This document shows, piece by piece, positions 31,751 to 60,425 of a stretch of DNA of 64,000 nt (position 1 is the stretch's first letter; the number at the start of each line of letters is the position of its first letter). Origin of the DNA: a virus. The notes beneath the pieces were generated by a model, which was given only the letters and a program-made list of their open reading frames with translations, was not told the origin of the DNA and searched no databases. Both the position numbers and the translations under genes were made by a program. The DNA is taken from positions 32,001 through 96,000 of the IMG/VR virus record IMGVR_UViG_3300045988_087149. The stretch is one strand, 5' to 3'.

Positions 31751-32026
31751 TTACTCATTGATTTCTGCCTTTAGTGTGCTTGTCGGCTTAAACGTCAGAG
31801 CATACTTAGCAGGAACTTCAATGGTTTCACCGGTCTGTGGATTACGAGCCGTTCTTGCATCACGCATCTTGGTTGTGAACTTGCCAAAGCCATGAATCAC
31901 CACATCTTCATGCTGAACTAGGCTATGTCTGATATAGTCAATGAACGTATCTACGATCTCAGTTGTATCCTTGACCGTATTTTCTGTGCTGTCTGCAACA
32001 AACTTGACGATTTCTTTCTTGGTCAT
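31751..32026 (-). CDS. hup: HU-type DNA-binding protein (DNABII)
   Basis: 91 aa. MTKKEIV...GFGKFTT..RDARTARNPQTGETIEVPA...FKP is the canonical HU pattern. Confidence 0.9.
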   Translation of the reverse strand: MTKKEIVKFVADSTENTVKDTTEIVDTFIDYIRHSLVQHEDVVIHGFGKFTTKMRDARTARNPQTGETIEVPAKYALTFKPTSTLKAEINE

Positions 32027-32639
32027 AAATTCCTTTTAGTTTCCTTTCAATTTCTAATAAAATTTTATTAAAACAAGTCGCAATGTTCATGCGCATATTG
32101 ACTTGATATATAGGGTTATTGTTCCACTATCAACTACTTACAGGGTCCTCTTACCCAAGCCTTATATTGTTTAGTGGGTTTACAGCCGCTACATCACTAA
32201 ACTAATTTTTTTTGCGTCGAACTCGACACGTCATTTATCCTTGGACTTAATGACGATTTCAGTAATGCGCGGAATAGGCAATCACCGCGCTATGAGTCTG
32301 TAGCCGACTACTCTTTGTGCTTTCTACTTTGAAGCCCGTCAACCTTGAACATTCCGGACTATTCAAGGATTTTTAGAATTTCTACACTCCCTACAAATTC
32401 ATGTTAAATTGAATTTACAGTTGCGCAACCATCTTAAAATCAAGAGTGTGGCGGCGTTGCCTTATAGTATCAGGTGGTCAACCGTCAGCTATTCAGCAAC
32501 TAGCATTACAACCCATAAACTAGACCATTTGCAAGCGACCAACTCTTGGCCTTGGCCTTACAAAGCTAGGATTTTCAGCTTTTCCTCCAGACGTCTATCA
32601 AGTGTGCTTACAATGCTAGTAGAGGCATGATAGACGTTT

Positions 32640-32710
32640 TGACCGAGGCGGGACTTGAACCTGCATTCATCTGCTATGAACAGCTCGCTTACCAGTTAGC
32701 TGACTCAGTC
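32640..32710 (-). tRNA. tRNA-like gene, anticodon CAU (Met/Ile2-type), imperfect cloverleaf, no encoded CCA
   Basis: Acceptor GACTGAG/CTCGGTC, anticodon loop UUCAUAG, T-loop TTCAAGT. It has an extra nt before the D stem and mismatches in the anticodon and T stems. Confidence 0.5.
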
Positions 32711-32804
32711 ATATGGAAATGGGCTTTAAGCATCAACCCATTAGAAGCGTTGGATTCCTATTCAGTTTATTAAGTCGTATGTATCCAACAACCAGTGGAC
32801 TTAA

Positions 32805-32881
32805 TGGTAGCTCAGGTGGAATTCGAATCCACACTTTACGGATTTTGAATCCGCTCCCTCTGCCGATTGGGGTACTGAGCC
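32805..32881 (-). tRNA. tRNA, anticodon CAA (Leu codon UUG) on a short-variable-arm (class I) body, CCA encoded
   Basis: Acceptor GGCTCAG/CTGAGCT (G1-U72), anticodon arm GCGGA-UUCAAAA-UCCGU, 5-nt variable loop, T arm GTGGA-TTCGAAT-TCCAC, then A73-CCA. Confidence 0.65.
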
Positions 32882-33357
32882 ATATTATCTCAAGCCGACT
32901 TCCTACCTCATAGCTATTTCTAGCATCGACTCGTGAATGATGTTTACATAATATCCTTATATCACCTTTGCCGTTATGTTTTTGCCCTCATGCTAACGGA
33001 ACACGCTCAGGCGCGACCCCAATTCTCTAGTCTGTATCTGCCGCTTCTCAAACTCTGCGCAGACCCGCTTCACAGGCGTGATATAGATTTGACGGTTATC
33101 TTCAAATCCGGTCGGATATTATATTATTTGTCAATCTCAATCCCTTTCATTATGCCGAACAGATTGGCCGGTGCGCCCTACTTGGCATCACGGTCTTTCG
33201 CACGACTGCGACCCGCTTTCATGCTTATCTCATTTGTCTTACGCACGTTCCCTATATAATGATGGCTGTTCCTCAAACTCCACTTAGCTGTTTCGTAACG
33301 CCCATCTGAACCATGTCAGGACTCAGCGATTTCAGCACCATCATCTTTACCTTCTCA

Positions 33358-33386
33358 ATTATACCATATTTGATTTTATTTGTCAA
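33358..33386 (-). promoter_or_regulatory. sigma-A-type promoter (leftward) driving the non-coding/tRNA unit
   Basis: AAAAATAATGcTTGACAAAT (33386-33381), 17 bp, TATAAT (33363-33358). Confidence 0.7.
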
Positions 33387-33523
33387 GCATTATTTTTGCA
33401 ATCAACATCCCAACTGCAATACCAGCCGCAAATGAACCTAGACAAGATAGTATAATAATCATACACTAATAATCAATAAATTCTCCTAAACTCTTTACCC
33501 TACAACTTACCCTACTTAATCAA

Positions 33524-33763
33524 CTAATCTGAATTTTCTTCATTATTAATCAATGATTTTTTTGCCATACGAGCTGATTTGAGCCGTTCTGCCGCAGCTT
33601 GTTTCTGTTCATCGGTCATTGAGCGGGTACGGAATGGATTGTTGCCTAGGCGAAATGGGTACAGATTGCAATCATGGATAACACAATTCTTTACTTCATA
33701 AGCTGAGCCACAACTACATTCCAAACAATGCTGGCGAATGGCTTTTAATGGAGATTTTTCCAT
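33524..33763 (-). CDS. zinc-ribbon protein (79 aa)
   Basis: CLECSC...C..HDC, with GAGGTGA upstream. It is one of only four ORFs I saw that end in TAG. Confidence 0.55.
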   Translation of the reverse strand: MEKSPLKAIRQHCLECSCGSAYEVKNCVIHDCNLYPFRLGNNPFRTRSMTDEQKQAAAERLKSARMAKKSLINNEENSD

Positions 33764-33781
33764 ATTATCACCTCATTCTCA

Positions 33782-34039
33782 TCAAGCATTATAGCTTGAA
33801 CATACGATGTATGGCTTATCTACGTTAAGATTTACTTCTTCAATATGAATTTCACCTTGAAAATCCTCAAAATCAATACGATCTTCATAATTATTATTTC
33901 CACCCACATCAACGACACGACAGTTATACTCATCGATGCTAATACGATTTCTGATTTCATCTTCGCTGTTTGCTACACACACAAATGAATCATAAGTGCC
34001 ATAATCACATTTGTCTACCCATACTTTGAATACTTTCAT
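33782..34039 (-). CDS. hypothetical phage protein (85 aa)
   Basis: GAGGTGATAAT upstream of the ATG; follows the tRNA. Confidence 0.55.
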   Translation of the reverse strand: MKVFKVWVDKCDYGTYDSFVCVANSEDEIRNRISIDEYNCRVVDVGGNNNYEDRIDFEDFQGEIHIEEVNLNVDKPYIVCSSYNA

Positions 34040-34070
34040 ATTATCACCTCGTTATATTTAGATTTTATCA

Positions 34071-34163
34071 TGGTAGCGGCGCAGAGGGTCGAACTCTGAT
34101 TTTGCCCCAATCTAGAGCTAAACTGGGTATAGGCCAGCTGGCTTACCATTAACCGACACCGCC
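34071..34163 (-). tRNA. tRNA-like gene with long variable arm (class II body), anticodon loop CCUAUAC (UAU by standard numbering, C33), CCA encoded
   Basis: Acceptor GGCGGTG/CGCCGCT (G1-U72), D arm GGTT-AATGGTA-AGCC, anticodon stem GCTGG/CCAGT, 23-nt variable region with a GCTC/GGGC stem, T arm CAGAG-TTCGACC-CTCTG, then A73-CCA. Confidence 0.6.
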
Positions 34164-48981: not shown

Positions 48982-49125
48982 TTGTGGAGCGAAATGAGCT
49001 ATAACTGGTATGTATCGAAAGATACGGAGCCAGAAGTATGGGATGATGAATATGAGCCAACTGAGCGTGATTGGGCGCTTTGGATATATGGTAGTTCAGA
49101 GAATGAATTAGAGGTGATTTTTTGA
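48982..49125 (+). CDS. small acidic protein (43-47 aa), coupled to the RNAP gene
   Basis: GGAGGTG upstream of TTG 48982 and ATG 48994. The stop TGA overlaps the TTG start at 49122 (TTGA). Confidence 0.4.
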   Translation: MWSEMSYNWYVSKDTEPEVWDDEYEPTERDWALWIYGSSENELEVIF

Positions 49126-50723
49126 GCCTACAGACGCAAATTTATTTGCATTCAGTGGACACGTCATGTTTTTATGACGACAACGAAATGGCACTACATA
49201 GACGGCTTGTTCGGTTATATTCGTTGCGCAAGCGATGGAAGGATGATGGTAAACCAGATTGGCACATCAAGTCTGTAAATCGTTTGCTTAAAAAAGAAAA
49301 GGCGCGACTATCTGAATTGCTTGATAATGCTGTGAGTCGAAATGTAACTAGAGAATTGCGTCAAGATGCTGTGACCGATAAGACGGTTGTTAATTTATTT
49401 GAATCTGATCTAACGCGAAGCTTAGGGCTTGAGCCATTCAAGTTGACCGATGAACTATTCATCATTAACGTGTTTTTCTTTCAAGTATTTAACAATCTAG
49501 TTCATCAAGGATTTATCTACAATGGTGAAAAATATTTGTTCCTTACAGCATCAGCAGGACAGATAAGGACGAAACGAGCAGTATTCGTTAAAGAATCGTC
49601 GTTTAAGCGCATTGAGCAAAAATTGATGTGCGGCTTGACCATAGACGAAATCAATGAGCGGGGAGGCATGAATCAGAATAAATTCCTTGCTTATTTGGCG
49701 CTTATGAACTCTGCTACAGATGTTTGGCAAGATTTTGACATTGACAAATCAGTTGTAGTAGATGATTGGGAAACAGCTGTTCCGGGATTGGTTGACCACA
49801 TTGATGGCGTATCGTATGAGATTCGGCGCGAAATGACAGAGACAATGATTCCTCATATGGACGGATGCGGCATCATGCTTAATGAAACAACAAGAATGGT
49901 GCGTATGCCATGGGTAAAGGGATTACTTGTTACATTTCCATTTGACAAGTTTATCAAAGAGAAATGCGGAGGTGAAGCGACTGTAATAGATATTTATGGC
50001 TATGAGCATAAAATCATAGAGGAAGATATACGGTATATATTTACAAAGAGCCAATTCAAGCTATGGAAATTTTATGATTCGTGGGATTGCTATAAGGCGC
50101 GATTCAAAAATTTTGGATGTAATGCCTGTTATTGCAATATAGAAGAGCCTTATATTCCAAAGAGCCGCATCAACTATCAGATGCTTCAAACATTGAGCGA
50201 TATGACTGATAATGAGATCGACCGCATCGTTTCTAAGACTGCACAAGAGATTGATGATGTTGGCAAAGATTATCAAGTTACTATGCGGCTACTTGGCGCA
50301 ACAGAGAACAACCGTTATAAGTCGGCCATGCAAGAGGCGTTGTTGATATATCCTGAGTTGTTTAAGGATTCATATAATCGAGAAATTCTGAAGCAGACTA
50401 AAAAGAGTTTAGTAAAGCAAGCTAAGGGCGGGCGGCTTAGAGTAAATGGTAAATACCTTTTTTTAGCGCCTGACCTATATGCGTTTTGTGAATGGTTGTT
50501 CCTAGGCGAACAAAACCCGCAAGGATTGCTTGCAGATGGTGATGTATATACAAACCAATATCGAGATGAAGAAACGTTGGCTTGTTTGCGTTCGCCGCAT
50601 CTATATCGAGAATGGGCAATCAGGACAAATCGACGCAGCTTAGAGCTTGATTATTGGTTTGGTGGAACTAAGTGTATATATACTAGCTGTCATGATTTAA
50701 TCAGTAGATACTTAATGTTCGAT
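49122..50723 (+). CDS. YonO-like single-subunit (two-barrel) RNA polymerase, exon 1
   Basis: 534 codons from a TTG start (GAGGTGA upstream), ending ...SRYLMFD. Joins exon 2 to give MFD-CDGDKALVV, a beta-prime-like DxDGD motif. Total length is about 857 aa. Confidence 0.6.
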
Positions 50724-51690
50724 TAGTTAGTCGCAGTCGAACCCTATGGAAACATAGGGATATAAAACGGTGTGAAGGCGTAAATGCGCCATGTCAGAAA
50801 TGGCAACGGGGAAAGTGAGTGCAACCCCGTAGGAAATAGAATGAATGAATTATTAAACTATAAGGAGGTGGAAAAATGTATAAAGAAGGAATTTATTGCC
50901 GTTGTGCATATCGAGTAAATGAAAATGGAGATTGTTATACACAAAATGGCAAATTTGAGTGGGTACATAGAGAGTGGCGATATAACAGTGATGGGTATGC
51001 TGTTGTATCAGCTTGTGGTCTAAAGCCAGACGGTACTAAGACATTCCGCTCACTTCATGTTCATGTATTAGTTGCGAGAGAATTTGTTGATGGATGGTTT
51101 GAAGGCGCAGAAGTAAATCATAAAGATTTTAACCGTGCTAATCCTGCTTGGTGGAATCTTGAGTGGTTAAGTCATAAAGATAATATTGCTTATTCGCATA
51201 ACGCTGGTAATTATAAAGGGCGGTTTGGTGAGGACAATCCAAACTATGGTAATGACACGCTACACAAGAGATACGTCGCCGAGCCTGAATTTGCCAAAGA
51301 AAAGCAGTCTCGGCCAAGAGGACAAAATGGACGTTCTGTGAAATGCTTATTATATTGTCATCAAAATATGTGTTTTGAGCATTGGTTTGATTGCCAGCGC
51401 GACGCAGTTGATTTTCTTATTGACTATAATGTCGTAAAATCAACTTGTAATAAAGAGAGTATAATTAGCAAGCTGAAACAAGAAGATGGATATAAGGGCT
51501 GGCATCTTATTCAAGATAAATAATTCATTCATTTAAAACCTCTATCGACTATCGAAAGGATATAAATCAACCGTGTGGGTTGATTTAGAATAACTGAGTA
51601 GAGTAGGAAATGGGTGAAATTCCCATCTCCGAAGCGCACCGAGCCTAAACGGGAAACCGCATGGTTATGATATAGTCAGTAACTCCTACG
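50724..51690 (+). mobile_element. group I intron with internal HNH endonuclease ORF
   Basis: P1 forms between exon GTTCGAT (50717-50723) and intron GTCGAAC (50736-50742), with a U-G pair at the splice site. A GAAA-capped hairpin lies at 50743-50758. The last intron nt is G (51690). Further perfect stems occur at 51570-51590 and 51610-51635. Confidence 0.7.
50876..51523 (+). CDS. HNH homing endonuclease (intron-encoded)
   Basis: 215 aa with AAGGAGGTG upstream. HNH core VHVLVAREF...EVNHKDFNRANPAWWNLEWLSHKDNI. Confidence 0.8.
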   Translation: MYKEGIYCRCAYRVNENGDCYTQNGKFEWVHREWRYNSDGYAVVSACGLKPDGTKTFRSLHVHVLVAREFVDGWFEGAEVNHKDFNRANPAWWNLEWLSHKDNIAYSHNAGNYKGRFGEDNPNYGNDTLHKRYVAEPEFAKEKQSRPRGQNGRSVKCLLYCHQNMCFEHWFDCQRDAVDFLIDYNVVKSTCNKESIISKLKQEDGYKGWHLIQDK

Positions 51691-52662
51691 TGCGACGGAG
51701 ATAAGGCGCTTGTAGTCAAAGACCGTACTTTGTCTACAGTTGCCAAACGCAATATGCAAGATATAGTTCCTTTAGCATACGATCTCAAAAAAGCTAAGGG
51801 CGGCTTGTTAAATCCAGACAGTATGTATAATGGAATGGTAAATGCTTATACTAAGGGAAATATCGGGCCGGTTAGTAATAATATTACAAAAATATGGAAT
51901 AGTGGTGAAATTACACAAGAAGAACTAGATGTAGTAAAATGGCTTTGTTTTGAGAATAACGCTGTTATAGATTGCGCTAAAACGCAATGGCTACCAGAAC
52001 GACCGAAACAAATTAATAACACAATCAAGAAATATACAAAAGCTCGTGTTCCCAATTTCTTTCAATATGCCAAAGACAAAGACCCAGATACCCAAGTAGA
52101 ACCGTCCAACAATTCCACGATGAATCGTATATCAGCCAAAATTCCTGCTTCCAGAATCCGCTATAATAGCAAGATTGGGAAATTCGACTGGACGATGCTG
52201 ATAAATAAATCAGTTGATTATACCACTAGAGAAAATTCACCAATCGTCGAACGGTATAATTGGTGGATGTGGAATCAGCGCCGATTTGATTATGGCGATG
52301 ACCCGCATATCAATGAGGACGATTTATATAAATATCGCTGCATTGCACAAGATATAGTGGAATATAGCAATAAGCCGCTAGATGTTGTTGTTAATAGCTT
52401 AGTTGCTTATTTATATACGGTCAAAAAATCAAGCAATAAGAAAATGCTGTGGGCTTGTTTTGGTTGGACGATTGTAGAGAATTTGAGAATCAATACGGCG
52501 CAACTTAATCCAATCTGCCTCATTTGCGGTAAGCGGTTTAAGCCGCGTGATGTATGCCAACATTATTGCTCTGAGGAATGCTACAAGAAAGCAGATAATC
52601 AGCGGCGCACTGAATCGCGCGAAGCTTCACCTGTCCGCACGGGGGATATGTTAAAACAGTAG
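51691..52662 (+). CDS. YonO-like RNA polymerase, exon 2
   Basis: The frame is open from 51676. CDGDKALVVKDRTLSTVAKRNMQDIV... The track TTG at 51730 has no SD. Ends in TAG 52660-52662. Confidence 0.6.
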   Translation, partial: CDGDKALVVKDRTLSTVAKRNMQDIVPLAYDLKKAKGGLLNPDSMYNGMVNAYTKGNIGPVSNNITKIWNSGEITQEELDVVKWLCFENNAVIDCAKTQWLPERPKQINNTIKKYTKARVPNFFQYAKDKDPDTQVEPSNNSTMNRISAKIPASRIRYNSKIGKFDWTMLINKSVDYTTRENSPIVERYNWWMWNQRRFDYGDDPHINEDDLYKYRCIAQDIVEYSNKPLDVVVNSLVAYLYTVKKSSNKKMLWACFGWTIVENLRINTAQLNPICLICGKRFKPRDVCQHYCSEECYKKADNQRRTESREASPVRTGDMLKQ

Positions 52663-54897: not shown

Positions 54898-55968
54898 ATG
54901 GAATTGCGGCTAATATCTGCGGATTTAGTCTTGGCTTGGGGATGTGTTCTACAAGTTCCATAATAGAGGAAAAGCCTGAACGCTTTTCGCTGTCATATGA
55001 CAGAATTTATCTTATCGGTAGCGTCAGTTGCAAATGGCGCTACCACCCTTAAATTGATTCATTCTCTACTAGGTGATAGCTACGGCTGTGTTGATCATGC
55101 TTGTGGGGCGATTGACCCACCTAGCAGAGTTGAATATAATCGAGCCGTAATCTGCAATTCAGCAGAGCCTAATACGAGCATGACATTGGTTGTGGCGGGC
55201 TATGTCAATATAGTATCGTAAACTGTATCGGCTCAGTTTTCATCTCGACCACGCAATCTCTAAAGTATCCCGTTTAAGTGAGCAACGGCGAATCTGTAAA
55301 TGGGCGTGTTGGAGATTTATAACCGACAAAATCTTATTCATCCTGCCTTTCTCGAATCCTTGCGTTTATACGTGGGGTATTGATGTAGAGAGGGTGGGTA
55401 TTCATCTCATGTACCATGCGTACAAGGAGTTCTTGAAGTCGTTAATAGCGGCTTTTGCAAAATCCTATCCTAGACGATAGGCGTATAGCAACATGTGTGT
55501 TATATGAGCGTATGAAGCATAGAACCGGGTTGTCTTTCGGCAATATGTGGACGTTTACATTGGGTTTTCAGCATACCGCAAGGCAACAAGAAAATGCTGA
55601 CCGACTATGCGGTAAAGATGGGACAACAGGTATCATAGGAGCCAATGACGAACCATATAAAACATAACAGGGAGTGGCGCTCGATACCGGCATGCGCTTG
55701 ATAAATACCGGACATTAATGAGTCCATAGGTAAGGACGTTAAAACTGCCTGTCGCTACTACTCATTGGCGGCTATGAATATCCGAAAGGAGGTCACTATT
55801 CTCTTGAATTATCCACTGGTTTATCCGAAGCATAATTAAAGAAAGGATGGTGGTCAGAGCCCATTGGCTCATATCTACAATAAGCCCAACTCAATGGGAA
55901 CTGTTGTTTAACTGAATATTGTACATTGACAAATACGAAGCAGCTGAGAGCAATCTTGGCTGCTTCGT
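54898..55968 (+). ncRNA. about 1.07-kb structured non-coding RNA candidate
   Basis: All three frames are saturated with TAA, TAG and TGA, and there is no SD-preceded ORF. Visibly GC-richer than the flanks. Perfect helices at 54990-55003, 55017-55044, 55464-55481 and 55860-55898. Bounded by a promoter and a hairpin. Confidence 0.55.
55935..55968 (+). terminator. terminator-like hairpin closing the non-coding RNA locus
   Basis: Perfect 10-bp stem ACGAAGCAGC/GCTGCTTCGT with a 14-nt loop. The following U-tract is weak (CATATTTAT). Confidence 0.45.
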
Positions 55969-56010: not shown

Positions 56011-56838
56011 ATGTTTTGCCCATATTGTGGCAAAGAAAAGCAAGATAGCCAATTCTATAAAAGCCCAATCAAAACGGGCGAATATATTAATCCATGCAAA
56101 TCATGTGTGACTGAGCTATATAAACAAGCTCTTGAATCTACTAAAGACCAAGGCGCGGCATTATGGTCAACTTGTATGCAGACTGGCATTCCTATGAGAC
56201 GGGCTGAATATACTGCTTGTCTTGACACCCTAGAAAAGGCAGCTAAAGGTAAAAAGCCTAGTTTATTTATGTTGTATCATACATATTTGTCTACATCGCC
56301 AGATAAACTAACAGGTGTGTGGGATAGTGATATGGAGTTGTCTAATTTCAAGGATTTGGGCGATGTTGCTAAAGGCGAAACTGATGAGGTGGCGCTAAAA
56401 GCAAGGTGGAATCGTCAGTGGGGCACTGATTATGAAGAATGGGAATATCAGTGGCTCGATGATATTTTTGAACGATATACAGAAGAAATTCTTGATATGG
56501 ACACAGCTAAAGAGATGACATATAGAAATCTATGCCAAGCCAATCTACGCAAATTCAAAGACCCTACAGATAAAGATGCTGGCGATGAAATTCTTAAATT
56601 GATGAAGGTGCTAAAACTAGACCAATTTAAGGAAAATAAGCAGAGCGATACTGAAAAATTTATAGAGCGCATGGCATGGAATATTGAAAATACAAAACCA
56701 TGCGAATGTGAGGATTTGAATAAGTATAAGGATTTTAGTGGATTTGAGCTGACATGGAAAGATATTTTAAGATGTTGTAAGAATTTGGTTGGGGGCGGGC
56801 GCGAATATCCAGATTTACCCTCAGATCAAAAGAGATGA
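56011..56838 (+). CDS. putative terminase small subunit (positional call)
   Basis: 275 aa with an N-terminal zinc ribbon CPYCG...CKSC. Lies immediately upstream of terL. No motif-level support. Confidence 0.4.
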   Translation: MFCPYCGKEKQDSQFYKSPIKTGEYINPCKSCVTELYKQALESTKDQGAALWSTCMQTGIPMRRAEYTACLDTLEKAAKGKKPSLFMLYHTYLSTSPDKLTGVWDSDMELSNFKDLGDVAKGETDEVALKARWNRQWGTDYEEWEYQWLDDIFERYTEEILDMDTAKEMTYRNLCQANLRKFKDPTDKDAGDEILKLMKVLKLDQFKENKQSDTEKFIERMAWNIENTKPCECEDLNKYKDFSGFELTWKDILRCCKNLVGGGREYPDLPSDQKR

Positions 56839-56854
56839 TGGGTGGTGATATAGA

Positions 56855-58699
56855 ATGAAAAGTCAGATGGGGGGCTTGAGACGCAAGTTCCTTGGAAACC
56901 ACCTAATTACGGCAAAAGCAAAAGAAAACGCAATGAAAGATGCGCAGAAAGAGGAAAATGCTATAGAGTGGCTGACTTTATTCTAGTTACGCCGAAATTG
57001 GCATATATATGTTGATTTAGTTCTTGGTATCAAGTTGCGCCCATTTCAGATGATAATGATATATCTGATGGGCATATCAGATGTATTTTTTGCAATATGT
57101 TCTCGTGGCTTATCCAAAACCTTTATTGTAGGTCTAGGTAATATTGTAAAGATGAATCTTTACCCTTACACAGAGGCTATCATTACATCATCAACTGTTG
57201 CACAGGCAAACAAGATGGTTGAAGATAAAATAAGAGACGAGTTGATTAAAAAATTATCTCCTTATCTCTTATATATGTATGAGCATGAATATTTGGTTAT
57301 TACTAAACCTGAAGATGGTTATAGAATAGAGAATAAACTTAATGGCTCGACTTTGCGTGTGTTACCATGTCAAGATAGCTCCCGTGGTCCAAAAGCAACA
57401 ATTCTTACATATGAAGAAGCCCGTTTGCTCAAAAAAGGTATGGTTGATTCCGTCTTTGAGAAGATGGCGCATCCAAGACAAGCCAAATATCTTAGCAACC
57501 CTGTATATGGCAATAATCCCCGTTGGAAAGAGGAATGTCAACATATCTATATCACATCTGCTAGATATAAGTTTGAGTGGTTTTGGTTATTATTCAAAAA
57601 GACATTTACTCGTATATTTACCGACACCAAAGTAAGATGCAATATTTTTGCCGGTGATATATTTATGGCTATTGATAATGGTTTTAAGACATGGGCTGAT
57701 TATTGGAATGGCAAGGCTGGCGGCGAAATGGACTTCAGAATGGAAGATTTGAACGAGATGATTTCAGAGGGCGATGATGCGTTCTTTAATCTAAAGTCAT
57801 TCAAAGAGAACCAAATTATTGAGCGTTGTTTCCGTCCATCTACTGCATTACAATTCTTTGCTGGAGAACAACCTAATTTCCCAGAAAAGAAAGAGGATGA
57901 AATACGTATCTTATCTATGGACTTGGCATTTGCAAATACCACAGGTTGTACAAAGAACGATAATACAATTATTGCTCTTATGTCGGCTCATTGGGATAGT
58001 AAAAAGAATAGATTCGAGCGGCACGTTGATTATATAGAGGGACATGATGCATCTGATACAATCGGTGCATCTGATAGATTTAGATATCTCAAATGGGTAT
58101 ATGATGCAGATTATTGTCTGTTTGACTCGCGTAGCGGCGGTGAGGTAATAGCAAATCACCTTACAGAACCACTACCAAGACCAGATTTGGGCGTAAGATG
58201 GGATTCGCGCGGCTTTGGATTGGCTGATAAATATCAGGTTGTATCTCAAGCCAAGATTGATGATTATCATAGCCGCACAGTTGATAAAAATGCTGTACCA
58301 TGCTTAATACCGATTATTGGTACTCCTGAATTGAACAGTAGCGGGTGGTTGTCACTACGTAAACAGCTTGAAACCAATAATATGAAATTCCTTATTTCTA
58401 TGCAAGATTATCAGAACGAGCTAACAGATAGCGGTGAATATTATCAATATACTGCTGAAGAATTAGCTAATCAGCTTGAGCCGTATGGTCAAACTGATAT
58501 GATGGTTATAGAGGCTGTTAATCTCAAGACAGTTATCAAGCAGGATAAAATCAAACTAGAAGAACCACGCACAGGAACTAAGGATAGAATTGTAACTATT
58601 ATGTATGGTAACTATATTATTGATTTAATTGAGAACGCATGGCAACAACAATTACAAGAAGATGAGTTTGATATAGACTCTATCCAGCTTGTTTGGTGA
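56855..58699 (+). CDS. terL: terminase large subunit, reading frame interrupted by one in-frame TAG (56984-56986)
   Basis: Walker A AICSRGLSKT, Walker B-like ILTYEEA, and a nuclease-domain-sized C-terminus. ATG 56855 (GGTGGTGA upstream) opens 43 codons in the same frame. The conserved-looking LGIKLRPFQ lies between the TAG and the first canonical start (TTG 57035, which has no SD). Confidence 0.7.
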
Positions 58700-58850
58700 C
58701 AATATCAAAATACAAAATAAAAACACTCAAAAATATAAAACGAGCGGATAGGGAGGACAAGTAGCTCAATGAACTTTGGCATACGTTAATGAAGTCCATA
58801 ATCTAACTGCTCTAATATATAAACAATAAAACAAAGAAAGGAGGTTGAAG

Positions 58851-60425
58851 ATGCCAAAAAATAATGAAGATGTAAAGCTATCTAAAAATGACCTTCAGGA
58901 TATTATTGATTTTAGTGCAGGTCTGATGGCGGTTGATAATTTCTACTCACCATTTCTGAGCAATCAGTTATTGACTAATCTAAACAATAATCCTCGCTTA
59001 CCTAATACAGAAGCGGTAAAAAGGGCGCTCAATGATTATAAGAATAGTGGCGCTGATTTACAGGGCTTTGTAGAATTTGCATCAGCGTTTGATATGATTT
59101 TCAAACGTACTTTATATTCTTATGCAAATGCGCTATCTTTCGACCTTCAGATAACGTGCAAAAACGCATATACAAAAGGCGACTATGAATCAGAGGAATA
59201 TAAGAAAGACCGGCAAACAGTAGATAATTTCTTAACTAACTTTGACTACAAGAAAGAATTTTATAATGTTCTGCTAAATGTCTTAAAGCGAGATTCATAT
59301 TTTACTTGGTTTAGAAAAACTAAGAGTGGCAATCGTGGTAAGATGAAGTATGCTCTACAAATCATGCCGCAGGATTATTGTATGCTCACCGGGTATTTTG
59401 AAAAAGGGTTGCTGTGGTCTTTTAATGTACTGTATTTTATGCAACCGGGCGTAGATATTGAGGGGTTTGATCCAAGTCTCAAAAAGACATATCTTGATGC
59501 TATTGAGAATGCAGAGCTAAATTATAGGCCGTCTGCGCCACTCGATAAACGTACTGGCAGTTATGCTCTATGGGCAGATGTATCACCACTCAATGGTGCT
59601 TATGCTTGGAAATTTTCTACAGATAACTTTGCTAATAACCCGTTTTTAGCACCGTATGTAGCAAATGTTCTACGCAGTGATGAGGTTGGCGAATTACAGT
59701 ATAATAAAGACCTTATCTCTGCGGCTGGCATTCTGGCTGGTGAGATTAGACTATTTGACTCGGCAAAGTCAGGTACGAAGGCAAATCAGTTCGCTATTGA
59801 CCCAAAAACGCTTGGAGCATTTATGCAAAAGGCGGCTAATGGTCTAAAGAATACTGTCAAATTGGCAGCTATGCCGCTTGAGAATATTAAGTTTTTCCAG
59901 TTTGAGGACAAGAATCCAAATAGCTACACAAATGAGCTAACTACAACAGCTGGTATTGGTACTGGCATTAGCCGTGTTATCTATTCATCTGATAAGATGA
60001 GCAATGCTGAACTAGAGGCGGCACTTAACGAGGTCTATCAGACTATGAAGCCAATGTATGCTCAGTTCAATAATTTCCTTGATTTCTACGTAAATCAAAT
60101 GACGAGTAAATATAAGTTTAAGTTTGAGTTCGTTGGTTCTAACTATCAATTTGAGCGAGATGCCAGATTTGATAAGATGATGAAGATGGCCGATAAGGGA
60201 CTTGTACTCAATTCGTCTGCATGGGCTAGTGCAATTGGTATGAATCCTGTTACATTTGATAGGATGCTTGCAGAGAGTAAATATACTGGATGGATTGATA
60301 AGTATTCGATGTTGATGTTAAATGCAAATACTACGGCGCAATCAAATGAAGGTGGCCGCCCCCGTCAGTCAGGAACATCACTTACTGAAAGCGGCGAAGC
60401 AAGCCGAGAAACATTAGAGGAATGA
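58851..60425 (+). CDS. portal protein (positional and size call)
   Basis: 524 aa directly after terL. AAAGGAGG lies 6 nt upstream of ATG 58851. Confidence 0.6.
   Translation: MPKNNEDVKLSKNDLQDIIDFSAGLMAVDNFYSPFLSNQLLTNLNNNPRLPNTEAVKRALNDYKNSGADLQGFVEFASAFDMIFKRTLYSYANALSFDLQITCKNAYTKGDYESEEYKKDRQTVDNFLTNFDYKKEFYNVLLNVLKRDSYFTWFRKTKSGNRGKMKYALQIMPQDYCMLTGYFEKGLLWSFNVLYFMQPGVDIEGFDPSLKKTYLDAIENAELNYRPSAPLDKRTGSYALWADVSPLNGAYAWKFSTDNFANNPFLAPYVANVLRSDEVGELQYNKDLISAAGILAGEIRLFDSAKSGTKANQFAIDPKTLGAFMQKAANGLKNTVKLAAMPLENIKFFQFEDKNPNSYTNELTTTAGIGTGISRVIYSSDKMSNAELEAALNEVYQTMKPMYAQFNNFLDFYVNQMTSKYKFKFEFVGSNYQFERDARFDKMMKMADKGLVLNSSAWASAIGMNPVTFDRMLAESKYTGWIDKYSMLMLNANTTAQSNEGGRPRQSGTSLTESGEASRETLEE

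Follow-up and report, generated by a model that had tools for sequence, protein, structure and literature searches.

A stretch of 64,000 nucleotides (nt) from the IMG/VR virus record IMGVR_UViG_3300045988_087149 (positions 32,001 to 96,000 of that record; hereafter the window, numbered from its first letter) carries a gene for the large terminase subunit (TerL) whose frame is broken by an in-frame TAG. Read directly, ATG 56855, with GGTGGTGA immediately 5′ of it, starts 43 sense codons (MKSQ...EWLTLF), the last of which are GAG TGG CTG ACT TTA TTC. The TTC at 56981-56983 is followed by TAG at 56984-56986 and TTA at 56987-56989, and the frame continues unchanged through TTA CGC CGA AAT TGG and LRRNWHIYVDLVLGIKLRPFQ...AICSRGLSKT to a TGA at 58697-58699. 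This layout had been described in an earlier note on the same DNA, and direct reading confirms it. The note also named TTG 57035 and ATG 57050 as the only canonical in-frame starts between the TAG and the Walker A motif; both are present, and ATG 57056 completes the list. As the note had said, TTG 57035 is not preceded by a Shine-Dalgarno sequence.

Searches of Pfam, NCBIfam and PHROG, and single-sequence searches of the PDB, gave no named match to the protein, and its identity is therefore taken from profile search, a structure model and synteny. The weak PDB profile matches are TerLs in six of six cases, and a Foldseek search with an AlphaFold model (predicted local distance difference test score, pLDDT, 68.6) placed large terminases in all of the top 28 positions, with T4 gp17 as the best (E=9e-8), and matched the G20c nuclease domain with a target-normalised template-modelling (TM) score of 0.67-0.70. 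Homologues of the protein carry terminase annotations, and the tblastn matches are to SPbeta-type terminases, including those of Enterocloster phage PMBT24 (47%), Thomasclavelia phages (33%) and SPbeta YonF (26%). A Walker A motif (CSRGLSKT) is present, and the portal gene that starts downstream at 58845 supports the assignment by synteny. Sequence and model together thus identify the gene as TerL.

The TAG is an addition to this gene, rather than a changed codon within it. Uninterrupted homologues align as W-x-T-[FL]-[FY]-R-R-N-W, with nothing between F/Y and RR (at the junction of locus L020, TTG TTC is followed directly by CGT AGG), and this motif shows zero length variation among those examined. 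The window reads W-L-T-L-F-stop-L-R-R-N-W. Since F/Y and RR are contiguous in the homologues, the window has two extra codons, TAG TTA, which amount to a 6-nt insert. The alignment of homologues, a check that the earlier note had put forward, shows that the residues 5′ of the TAG (EENxIEW-x-T) are conserved TerL sequence. The accompanying suggestion that the TAG is a mutated Tyr codon (TAY to TAG) does not hold, as the TAG is inserted and no residue aligns with it.

The insert is also fixed in the clade of the window. TAG TTA is invariant in 32 related loci, comprising 18 distinct haplotypes, drawn from IMG/VR, ENA and Logan assemblies, and the truncated gene call of this clade (P0002) represents 1080 member sequences, the largest cluster among the best 120 matches. 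The contigs are 80-100 kb, near genome length, and some have high coverage. In public collections, the same TerL appears in three forms: truncated calls from an internal Met (P0002-P0007), full-length calls with TAG as Gln (P0001/L179, P0113/L180), and a separate open reading frame (ORF) of 42-43 amino acids (aa). These are annotation artefacts due to the insert. The apparent Gln alleles P0001 and P0113 were considered as sense-codon alleles and rejected, as TAG is present in the contigs of both and the Gln comes from gene calling with a table in which TAG is Gln; the P0001 contig reads ttc tag tta cgc, and its gene call disagrees with the standard-code translation. On this comparison, the stop codon is real and not an error. 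A gene of this appearance could also result from misassembly, or from a nonsense or indel mutation in a phage that is defective, and a truly broken TerL does exist in the cultured Staphylococcus phage SPbeta-like, which has a 2-nt deletion compared to a 99.8% identical phage. The occurrence of an identical insert in these loci from many studies and in the 1080-member cluster, the contigs of near genome length, and purifying selection over the whole gene leave this explanation with next to no probability.

The Staphylococcus phage (L186, NC_029119, 1114-2911) was considered as a cultured phage with the same feature and rejected, as its deletion (ACTGGGC to ACTGC versus MT955612) is unrelated and lies at about codon 234. 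Its TerL is annotated as two hypothetical proteins, and the change is either a frameshift mutation or a sequencing error.

Comparison with relatives whose TerLs are 58-77% identical provides the key evidence on how the insert is decoded. Inserts are found at exactly the same codon junction and fall into eight classes (Table 1). In anticipation of the mechanism proposed below, we refer to the codon before the stop as the take-off codon, to the triplet just 5′ of the following Arg codon as the landing codon, and to the Arg codon as the resume codon.

Table 1. Codons at the TerL junction in the window, in relatives with an insert, and in loci that lack one
Class	Junction	Added nt	Loci
A	TTA TTC TAG TTA CGC	+6	window
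B	CTT TTC TAG TTC CGT; CTT TTT TAG TTC	+6	L036, L030
C	TTA TTC TGA TTC CGG	+6	L022
D	TTT TTC TAG CAA/CGA/CTA TTC CGA	+9	L015, L181, L183
E	CTT TAT TAG C/G TAT CGC	+7	L018, L019
F	TTT TAT TAG TT TAC CGG	+8	L033
G	TTT TAT TAG TAT AGG	+6	L180
H	TTC TTC TAG TAA TTC CGT	+9	L182
Without insert			L017, L020, L029, L039, L049, L050, L055, L071, L108, L111, L113, L123, L184, L185, PMBT24

A stop, TAG or TGA, directly follows the take-off codon in all eight classes, and in all eight the pre-stop codon recurs just 5′ of the resume codon: as a triplet cognate to the take-off tRNA in seven (TTC/TTC, TTT/TTC, TAT/TAT, TAT/TAC), and with two of three bases matching in the TTC/TTA pair of the window, where the TT prefix of the landing codon is kept. 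The take-off codon co-varies with the landing codon across the classes, Phe with Phe and Tyr with Tyr. A skip from take-off to landing restores the uninterrupted [FL][FY]-RRN in every class (with L020, L017, L055 and L184 as references), and this holds in frame 0, +1 and +2, for TAG or TGA, and for one stop or two. Within class D, the middle codon of the gap varies at its second base (CAA/CGA/CTA) with both TTC codons fixed, which fits a gap that is not translated. The chance of a cognate match is ∼0.05 per class (A and T ∼31% each), and a conservative estimate that assumes a single ancestral insert and one co-variation event gives p ∼0.002. A scan of the window for the arrangement codon, stop, similar codon returned 29 chance patterns; the pattern is therefore not significant in one genome, and its significance rests on the comparison with relatives.

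The codons on both sides of the insert are, as judged from their patterns of change, translated and under purifying selection. In the pooled interrupted lineages, where synonymous change (pS) is near saturation at ∼0.8, the N-terminal segment has a ratio of non-synonymous to synonymous change (pN/pS) of 0.10 over its first 12 codons and of 0.30 over its last 12. The ratio is again 0.10 over the 15 codons that follow the landing codon, of which codons 2-9 belonged to the DNA search pattern for loci L029 onward. Selection on codons 2-9 thus rests on L015, L018, L019 and L022, which were found via other parts of the protein and show the same purifying picture as the pooled set, together with codons 10-15 and polymorphism within the clade. 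Within the clade, polymorphic codons that are synonymous-only number 10 in the 20 codons at 56990-57049, as against three that change the amino acid, and the corresponding numbers for the N-terminal segment are 11 and six.

These data also bear on whether the TAG simply ends one product, so that the 43-aa peptide would be a separate or dispensable product and synthesis of the ATPase would start at TTG 57035, at ATG 57050 or by termination-reinitiation. Standard gene callers do yield such truncated proteins (P0002-P0007), and tolerance of split genes is evident from the YonO-like polymerase gene of the window, which is in two pieces. Purifying selection nonetheless acts on the 15-20 codons that separate the stop from any start, no class has an in-frame ATG, GTG or TTG within 7-15 codons after the landing codon or a Shine-Dalgarno sequence, and a start at ATG 57050 would drop the conserved PFQ motif. 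TTG 57035 itself is TTG in 11 of the 18 clade haplotypes, TTA in five and CTG in two, all coding for Leu. Re-initiation does not explain this combination of selection on the flanks and no conserved start, and it leaves the matching of take-off and landing codons unaccounted for; we regard a split or N-terminally truncated TerL as very unlikely. The option in the earlier note of an error or nonsense mutation followed by restart at TTG 57035 falls on the same grounds, given the conserved insert, the selected codons from TAG to TTG, and the loss of that TTG in 7 of 18 haplotypes.

From these comparisons, full-length TerL is probably made by a short translational bypass, or stop-hop, of the conserved 6-nt insert. 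The ribosome would translate the 43 codons from ATG 56855 until UUC 56981-56983 occupies the P site and UAG the A site, where termination would be slow enough for some of the peptidyl-tRNA-Phe to unpair. The mRNA would then slide by 6 nt, the tRNA would re-pair with UUA 56987-56989 via the first two codon positions, and decoding would resume at CGC 56990. The predicted product is a TerL of 612 aa, in which ...EWLTLF is joined to RRNWHIY..., colinear with the uninterrupted homologues. The hop predicts the junction peptide EENAIEWLTLFR; read-through of the stop would give EENAIEWLTLFXLR. The take-off codons UUC, UUU and UAU have only A:U pairs at their first two positions and should therefore unpair more easily. 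Ribosomes that do not hop would terminate and release the 43-aa peptide, and it is proposed that by this release the insert throttles TerL output. TerL acts catalytically, and a low output may thus be tolerable or even selected. With regard to re-pairing, a wobble mismatch is tolerated in frameshifting, and matches at two of three positions occur in mitochondrial bypass elements (PMC5009743). The model of the protein places the junction in a predicted helix (residues 29-45), although confidence there is low and little weight can be put on this placement. The features of the locus are collected in Table 2.

Table 2. Coordinates of TerL, its proposed recoding site and its neighbours in the window
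Feature	Position	Strand	Remark
YonG-like gene, directly 5′ of TerL	56011..56838	+	16-nt spacer to TerL
Ribosome-binding region GGTGGTGA of the TerL ATG	56839..56854	+	between the YonG-like TGA 56836-56838 and ATG 56855
TerL N-terminal segment, 43 codons, MKSQMGGLRRKF...EENAIEWLTLF	56855..56983	+	homologous to the N-termini of uninterrupted TerLs
Proposed take-off codon TTC (Phe)	56981..56983	+	invariant in the clade; TTC/TTT or TAT across all eight junction classes
6-nt coding gap: TAG 56984-56986 and proposed landing codon TTA 56987-56989	56984..56989	+	missing from uninterrupted homologues
TerL body, from proposed resume codon CGC (Arg) to TGA; Q motif, Walker A (CSRGLSKT), ATPase and nuclease domains	56990..58699	+	
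TTG put forward as restart codon, rejected	57035..57037	+	not conserved in the clade, no Shine-Dalgarno
Portal gene	58845..60425	+	phrog_2739 portal protein, E=7e-37

The distribution of the insert suggests how it may have arisen. Interrupted and uninterrupted TerLs interleave in a tree of the first 250 residues, and L055, which has no insert, differs from L018 (+7) by a 7-nt indel within flanking DNA that is 84-90% identical. An intact ORF would be regained by deletion between the 3-nt repeats, and the persistence of the insert in many lineages therefore argues that selection maintains it. Loci of classes D and H all have a gene of ∼990 nt cleanly inserted exactly between the yonG-like gene and the TerL ATG, so that it sits ∼130 nt 5′ of the bypass insert. 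The gene (at 407-1306 in L181) encodes an I-HmuI-like protein of 300-315 aa with NUMOD3 (E=1.7e-23 and 6.9e-27) and HNH (E=8.6e-5) domains. The uninterrupted L184 and L185 have neither the endonuclease gene nor the insert, and their TerL is 90% (DNA) and 95% (aa) identical to that of class D; an HNH-NUMOD3 gene 5′ of TerL was found in 0 of 16 uninterrupted loci surveyed. Homing endonucleases were probably involved in how the insert arose, and the position of the HNH-NUMOD3 gene directly 5′ of TerL in two sister classes suggests that the insert may disrupt the target of the nuclease. Classes A (window), B, C, E, F and G have the insert and no adjacent nuclease gene, and the sequences are suggestive of either loss of the nuclease or an insert that confers immunity against nuclease-bearing relatives. 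On this view, the insert would have been retained in the window lineage with no nuclease gene beside it.

Taken further, and with somewhat less than even confidence, the junctions can be pictured as the first natural family of signal-less stop-hops. The 6-9-nt stop inserts would be immunity scars against HNH-NUMOD3 at one TerL junction, decoded by hopping of peptidyl-tRNA-Phe or -Tyr, in a lineage that ranks among the more abundant SPbeta-like phages of the human gut. Once the nuclease was lost, they would have been kept because they either confer resistance to co-infecting relatives that bear the endonuclease or limit the dosage of terminase.

Free-standing HNH-NUMOD3 or GIY-YIG-NUMOD3 genes also lie between TerL and portal in L014/L047, L022/L045, L184, L055 and L039, which include both interrupted and uninterrupted loci. 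No second stop-containing insert was found beside these TerL-portal endonuclease genes, the alignments being unbroken in the adjacent gene ends. In the cultured relatives Enterocloster phage CB457P1 (L005, OP172753), CB473P1-3 and CB457P2, the annotation divides TerL into three or four separate hypothetical proteins, among which an “intron-associated endonuclease” is placed, and TerL in this phage group is a hotspot for mobile elements.

Several points weigh against a hop and against its link to endonucleases. The evidence for the hop is wholly computational, and the hop, its efficiency and a role in endonuclease immunity are inferred from it. No conserved RNA structure flanks the site (local fold z=-0.55; alignment fold -1.16 kcal/mol without covariation), no Shine-Dalgarno-like stimulator is present at the site, and Rfam has nothing at the insert. 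Without stimulators, the efficiency may be as low as that of synthetic stop-hops, which were demonstrated in E. coli (PMC5009743) and not in Clostridia. The classes may share one ancestral insert, in which case the eight codon matches are not independent events. The association with an endonuclease gene amounts, at the level of lineages, to two classes only, and the window has no such gene between the YonG-like gene and TerL.

The remaining difficulty concerns the window itself, where the insert is in-frame (+6) and the landing codon TTA is non-cognate for tRNA-Phe(GAA), so that the hop rule describes class A less well than the sister classes. For class A alone, in-frame read-through of the UAG would also yield a full-length protein: a near-cognate host tRNA or a host suppressor would act at the TAG and TTA would be read as Leu, giving a two-residue insertion (F-X-L-RR), and some gene callers do translate the TAG as Gln (P0001). 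The sister lineages, with TGA (L022), TAG TAA (L182), and 7- or 8-nt inserts (L018/L019, L033) at the same junction, could not use this route. In addition, two added residues would fall within WxT[FL][FY]RRNW, which is length-invariant in the uninterrupted homologues examined, there is no conserved 3′ structure or context, and the landing codon keeps its TT prefix. We consider read-through in the window clade unlikely. The proposal in the earlier note that programmed amber read-through or suppression gates TerL synthesis therefore survives in part: recoding probably does gate TerL, while the amber mechanism fits the junction family poorly.

Reassignment of TAG to an amino acid throughout the genome at low density (code 15-like), as in recoded gut phages, was the other option of the note, and we find it highly improbable. 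TAG is indeed the rarest stop among 102 ORFs of the window (TAA 53, TGA 41, TAG 8), no long late-module ORF of the relatives ends in TAG, and recoding of late genes including the terminase is known in gut phages (bioRxiv 10.1101/2021.08.26.457843). Apart from TerL, though, no gene is interrupted by an in-frame TAG, either in the window or in ∼27 kb of structural genes of clade relatives, and TAG terminates the gene at 51730-52662 at position 845 of 847 of the family profile phrog_8308. TGA, double-stop and frame-shifting variants at the same site also speak against reassignment. A suppressor tRNA with a CUA anticodon, which the note had suggested seeking, was not found in the 64-kb window, in the 27 kb walked downstream in clade relatives, or in >40 related flanks, a coverage that is a composite of window and relatives, as the walk did not reach the left end of the window. 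The related flanks contain no tRNA at all. The window has a tRNA cluster at 32639-34163 on the minus strand with tRNA-Met(CAT) and tRNA-Leu(CAA), both confirmed by Rfam, and a doubtful 93-nt tRNA-Ile(TAT) called by ARAGORN only; none of these can read a stop codon. Nor could a suppressor tRNA explain the junction family, as it would be unable to read the TGA, TAG TAA and +7/+8 variants.

Among known systems, the functionally closest analogue of the proposed stop-hop at TerL is the synthetic stop-hop, and the biologically closest the terminase of Streptomyces phage Hau3. In the synthetic stop-hops of E. coli, matched or similar codons flank a stop and re-pairing occurs 6 nt downstream (Weiss, Dunn, Atkins & Gesteland 1987; PMC5009743), so that 9 nt specify one amino acid, and no stimulatory RNA signals are needed (PMC5009743; bioRxiv 10.1101/2024.12.09.627546). 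The TerL site, with neither structure nor Shine-Dalgarno-like element, fits such signal-independent hopping, unlike T4 gene 60. The synthetic sites are engineered and of low efficiency, whereas the TerL site is natural, conserved, located in an essential phage gene and present as +6 to +9 variants. A 2016 review described in-frame stop-hopping only with synthetic constructs, natural occurrences being unknown (PMC5009743), and no later reports of a natural stop-hop were found in the literature.

The terminase genes of Hau3, StrepC.1 and an S. catenulae prophage likewise have short, frame-disrupting inserts (7-10 nt), with flanks that are contiguous in insert-free homologues, and bypass is proposed to regulate terminase synthesis (Smith et al. 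2013; PMC10732093). In Hau3, inserts of 10 nt (7 nt in related prophages) are bypassed, and the junction peptide was observed by mass spectrometry in E. coli (PMC10732093). The A site there is occupied by UUA, a rare sense (“hungry”) codon, and a 5′ stem-loop and Shine-Dalgarno sequence are proposed as stimulators; at the TerL site here, the A-site codon is a stop (TAG/TGA), and UUA is a common codon in the window genome, which has 38% GC. The host phylum and, apparently, the position in TerL also differ. Only three genes are known for Hau3-type bypass, and a link to endonucleases is unreported (PMC10732093).

T4 gene 60 provides the precedent for such a link. At T4 mobA/gene 60, an HNH endonuclease travels with the bypass insert, whose proposed role is to prevent self-cleavage, and loss of the nuclease with retention of the bypass is frequent (bioRxiv 10.1101/2022.08.31.505936). 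The take-off codon followed by UAG, the matched landing codon, and the existence of genomes with and without the element are shared with the TerL junctions, the landing codon of the window being a match at two of three positions; an HNH endonuclease gene beside the insert is shared by classes D and H only and not by the window. Gene 60 differs in its 50-nt gap, take-off stem-loop, nascent-peptide signal and efficiency of 30-50%, as compared to a gap of 6-9 nt and no conserved structure here, and in being a topoisomerase gene, where the element also splits the host gene. With no 50-nt gap, no stem-loop and no sequence homology, membership of the TerL site in the gene 60 cassette family was rejected. 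The “byps” of Magnusiomyces capitatus mitochondria are many short bypassed inserts, sometimes with a match at two of three codon positions like TTC/TTA in the window, but have gaps of 27-55 nt and an unassigned A-site codon, and occur in many genes read by mitochondrial ribosomes (PMC5009743). Gut phages that recode TAG to Gln also have an in-frame TAG in a late gene (terminase) for which callers write Gln (bioRxiv 10.1101/2021.08.26.457843). They contain many in-frame TAGs and usually suppressor tRNAs, in contrast to the one site described here, for which the regions covered yielded no suppressor tRNA and sister loci have TGA, double-stop and frame variants.

Translational bypassing is known from very few natural systems, and a natural, multi-variant stop-hop in an essential gut-phage gene would, if true, fill a gap. 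With gaps from +6 to +9, more than one stop codon, and landing codons both cognate and non-cognate, the natural variants would provide a built-in allelic series for mechanism. The coupling of endonuclease and bypass seen at T4 gene 60 would, if it applies here, be a general evolutionary route and no one-off. For annotation, even one such in-frame stop can cause a phage to be mistaken for a user of an alternative code.

The window belongs to an SPbeta-like gut phage. The YonG-like gene is 36% identical to the gene 5′ of TerL in Enterocloster phage PMBT24 (E=1e-44); it was considered as a possible endonuclease and rejected, as it is YonG-like and has no similarity to the HNH-NUMOD3 protein. Elsewhere, the window encodes a YonO-like RNA polymerase, DNA polymerase III alpha, NrdD and helicases. 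No near-identical phage genome was found in INPHARED. The YonO-like RNA polymerase gene is in two pieces (49122-52662, plus strand): ORF 49122-50726 matches phrog_8308 positions 2-550 and Pfam RdRP (E=2e-7), and ORF 51730-52662 matches positions 567-845 of the same profile. The ∼1-kb spacer between them holds ORF 50876-51523, with an HNH_3 endonuclease domain (E=5.5e-5), and Rfam found no group I intron there at the gathering threshold; the pieces are either a split gene or the result of an unrecognised intron. An Rfam match to the DUF3800-VIII RNA (46 bits versus a gathering score of 40.2) lies at 55337-55404 on the plus strand, in an intergenic region ∼1.5 kb 5′ of TerL.

The relatives of the window also show signs of genome rearrangement. 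The 89.4-kb contig of relative L172 (IMGVR_UViG_3300045988_084189) looks circularly permuted, with the late genes 3′ of TerL resuming at the start of the contig. Its region expected to match the left end of the window has no nucleotide similarity to it, so that the early-gene region is mosaic among clade members. Within TerL, P0006 and P0014, relatives of the segment 56990-58699, are nearly identical to the window TerL over the C-terminal half and divergent over the N-terminal half, a mosaic that points to recombination inside the gene.

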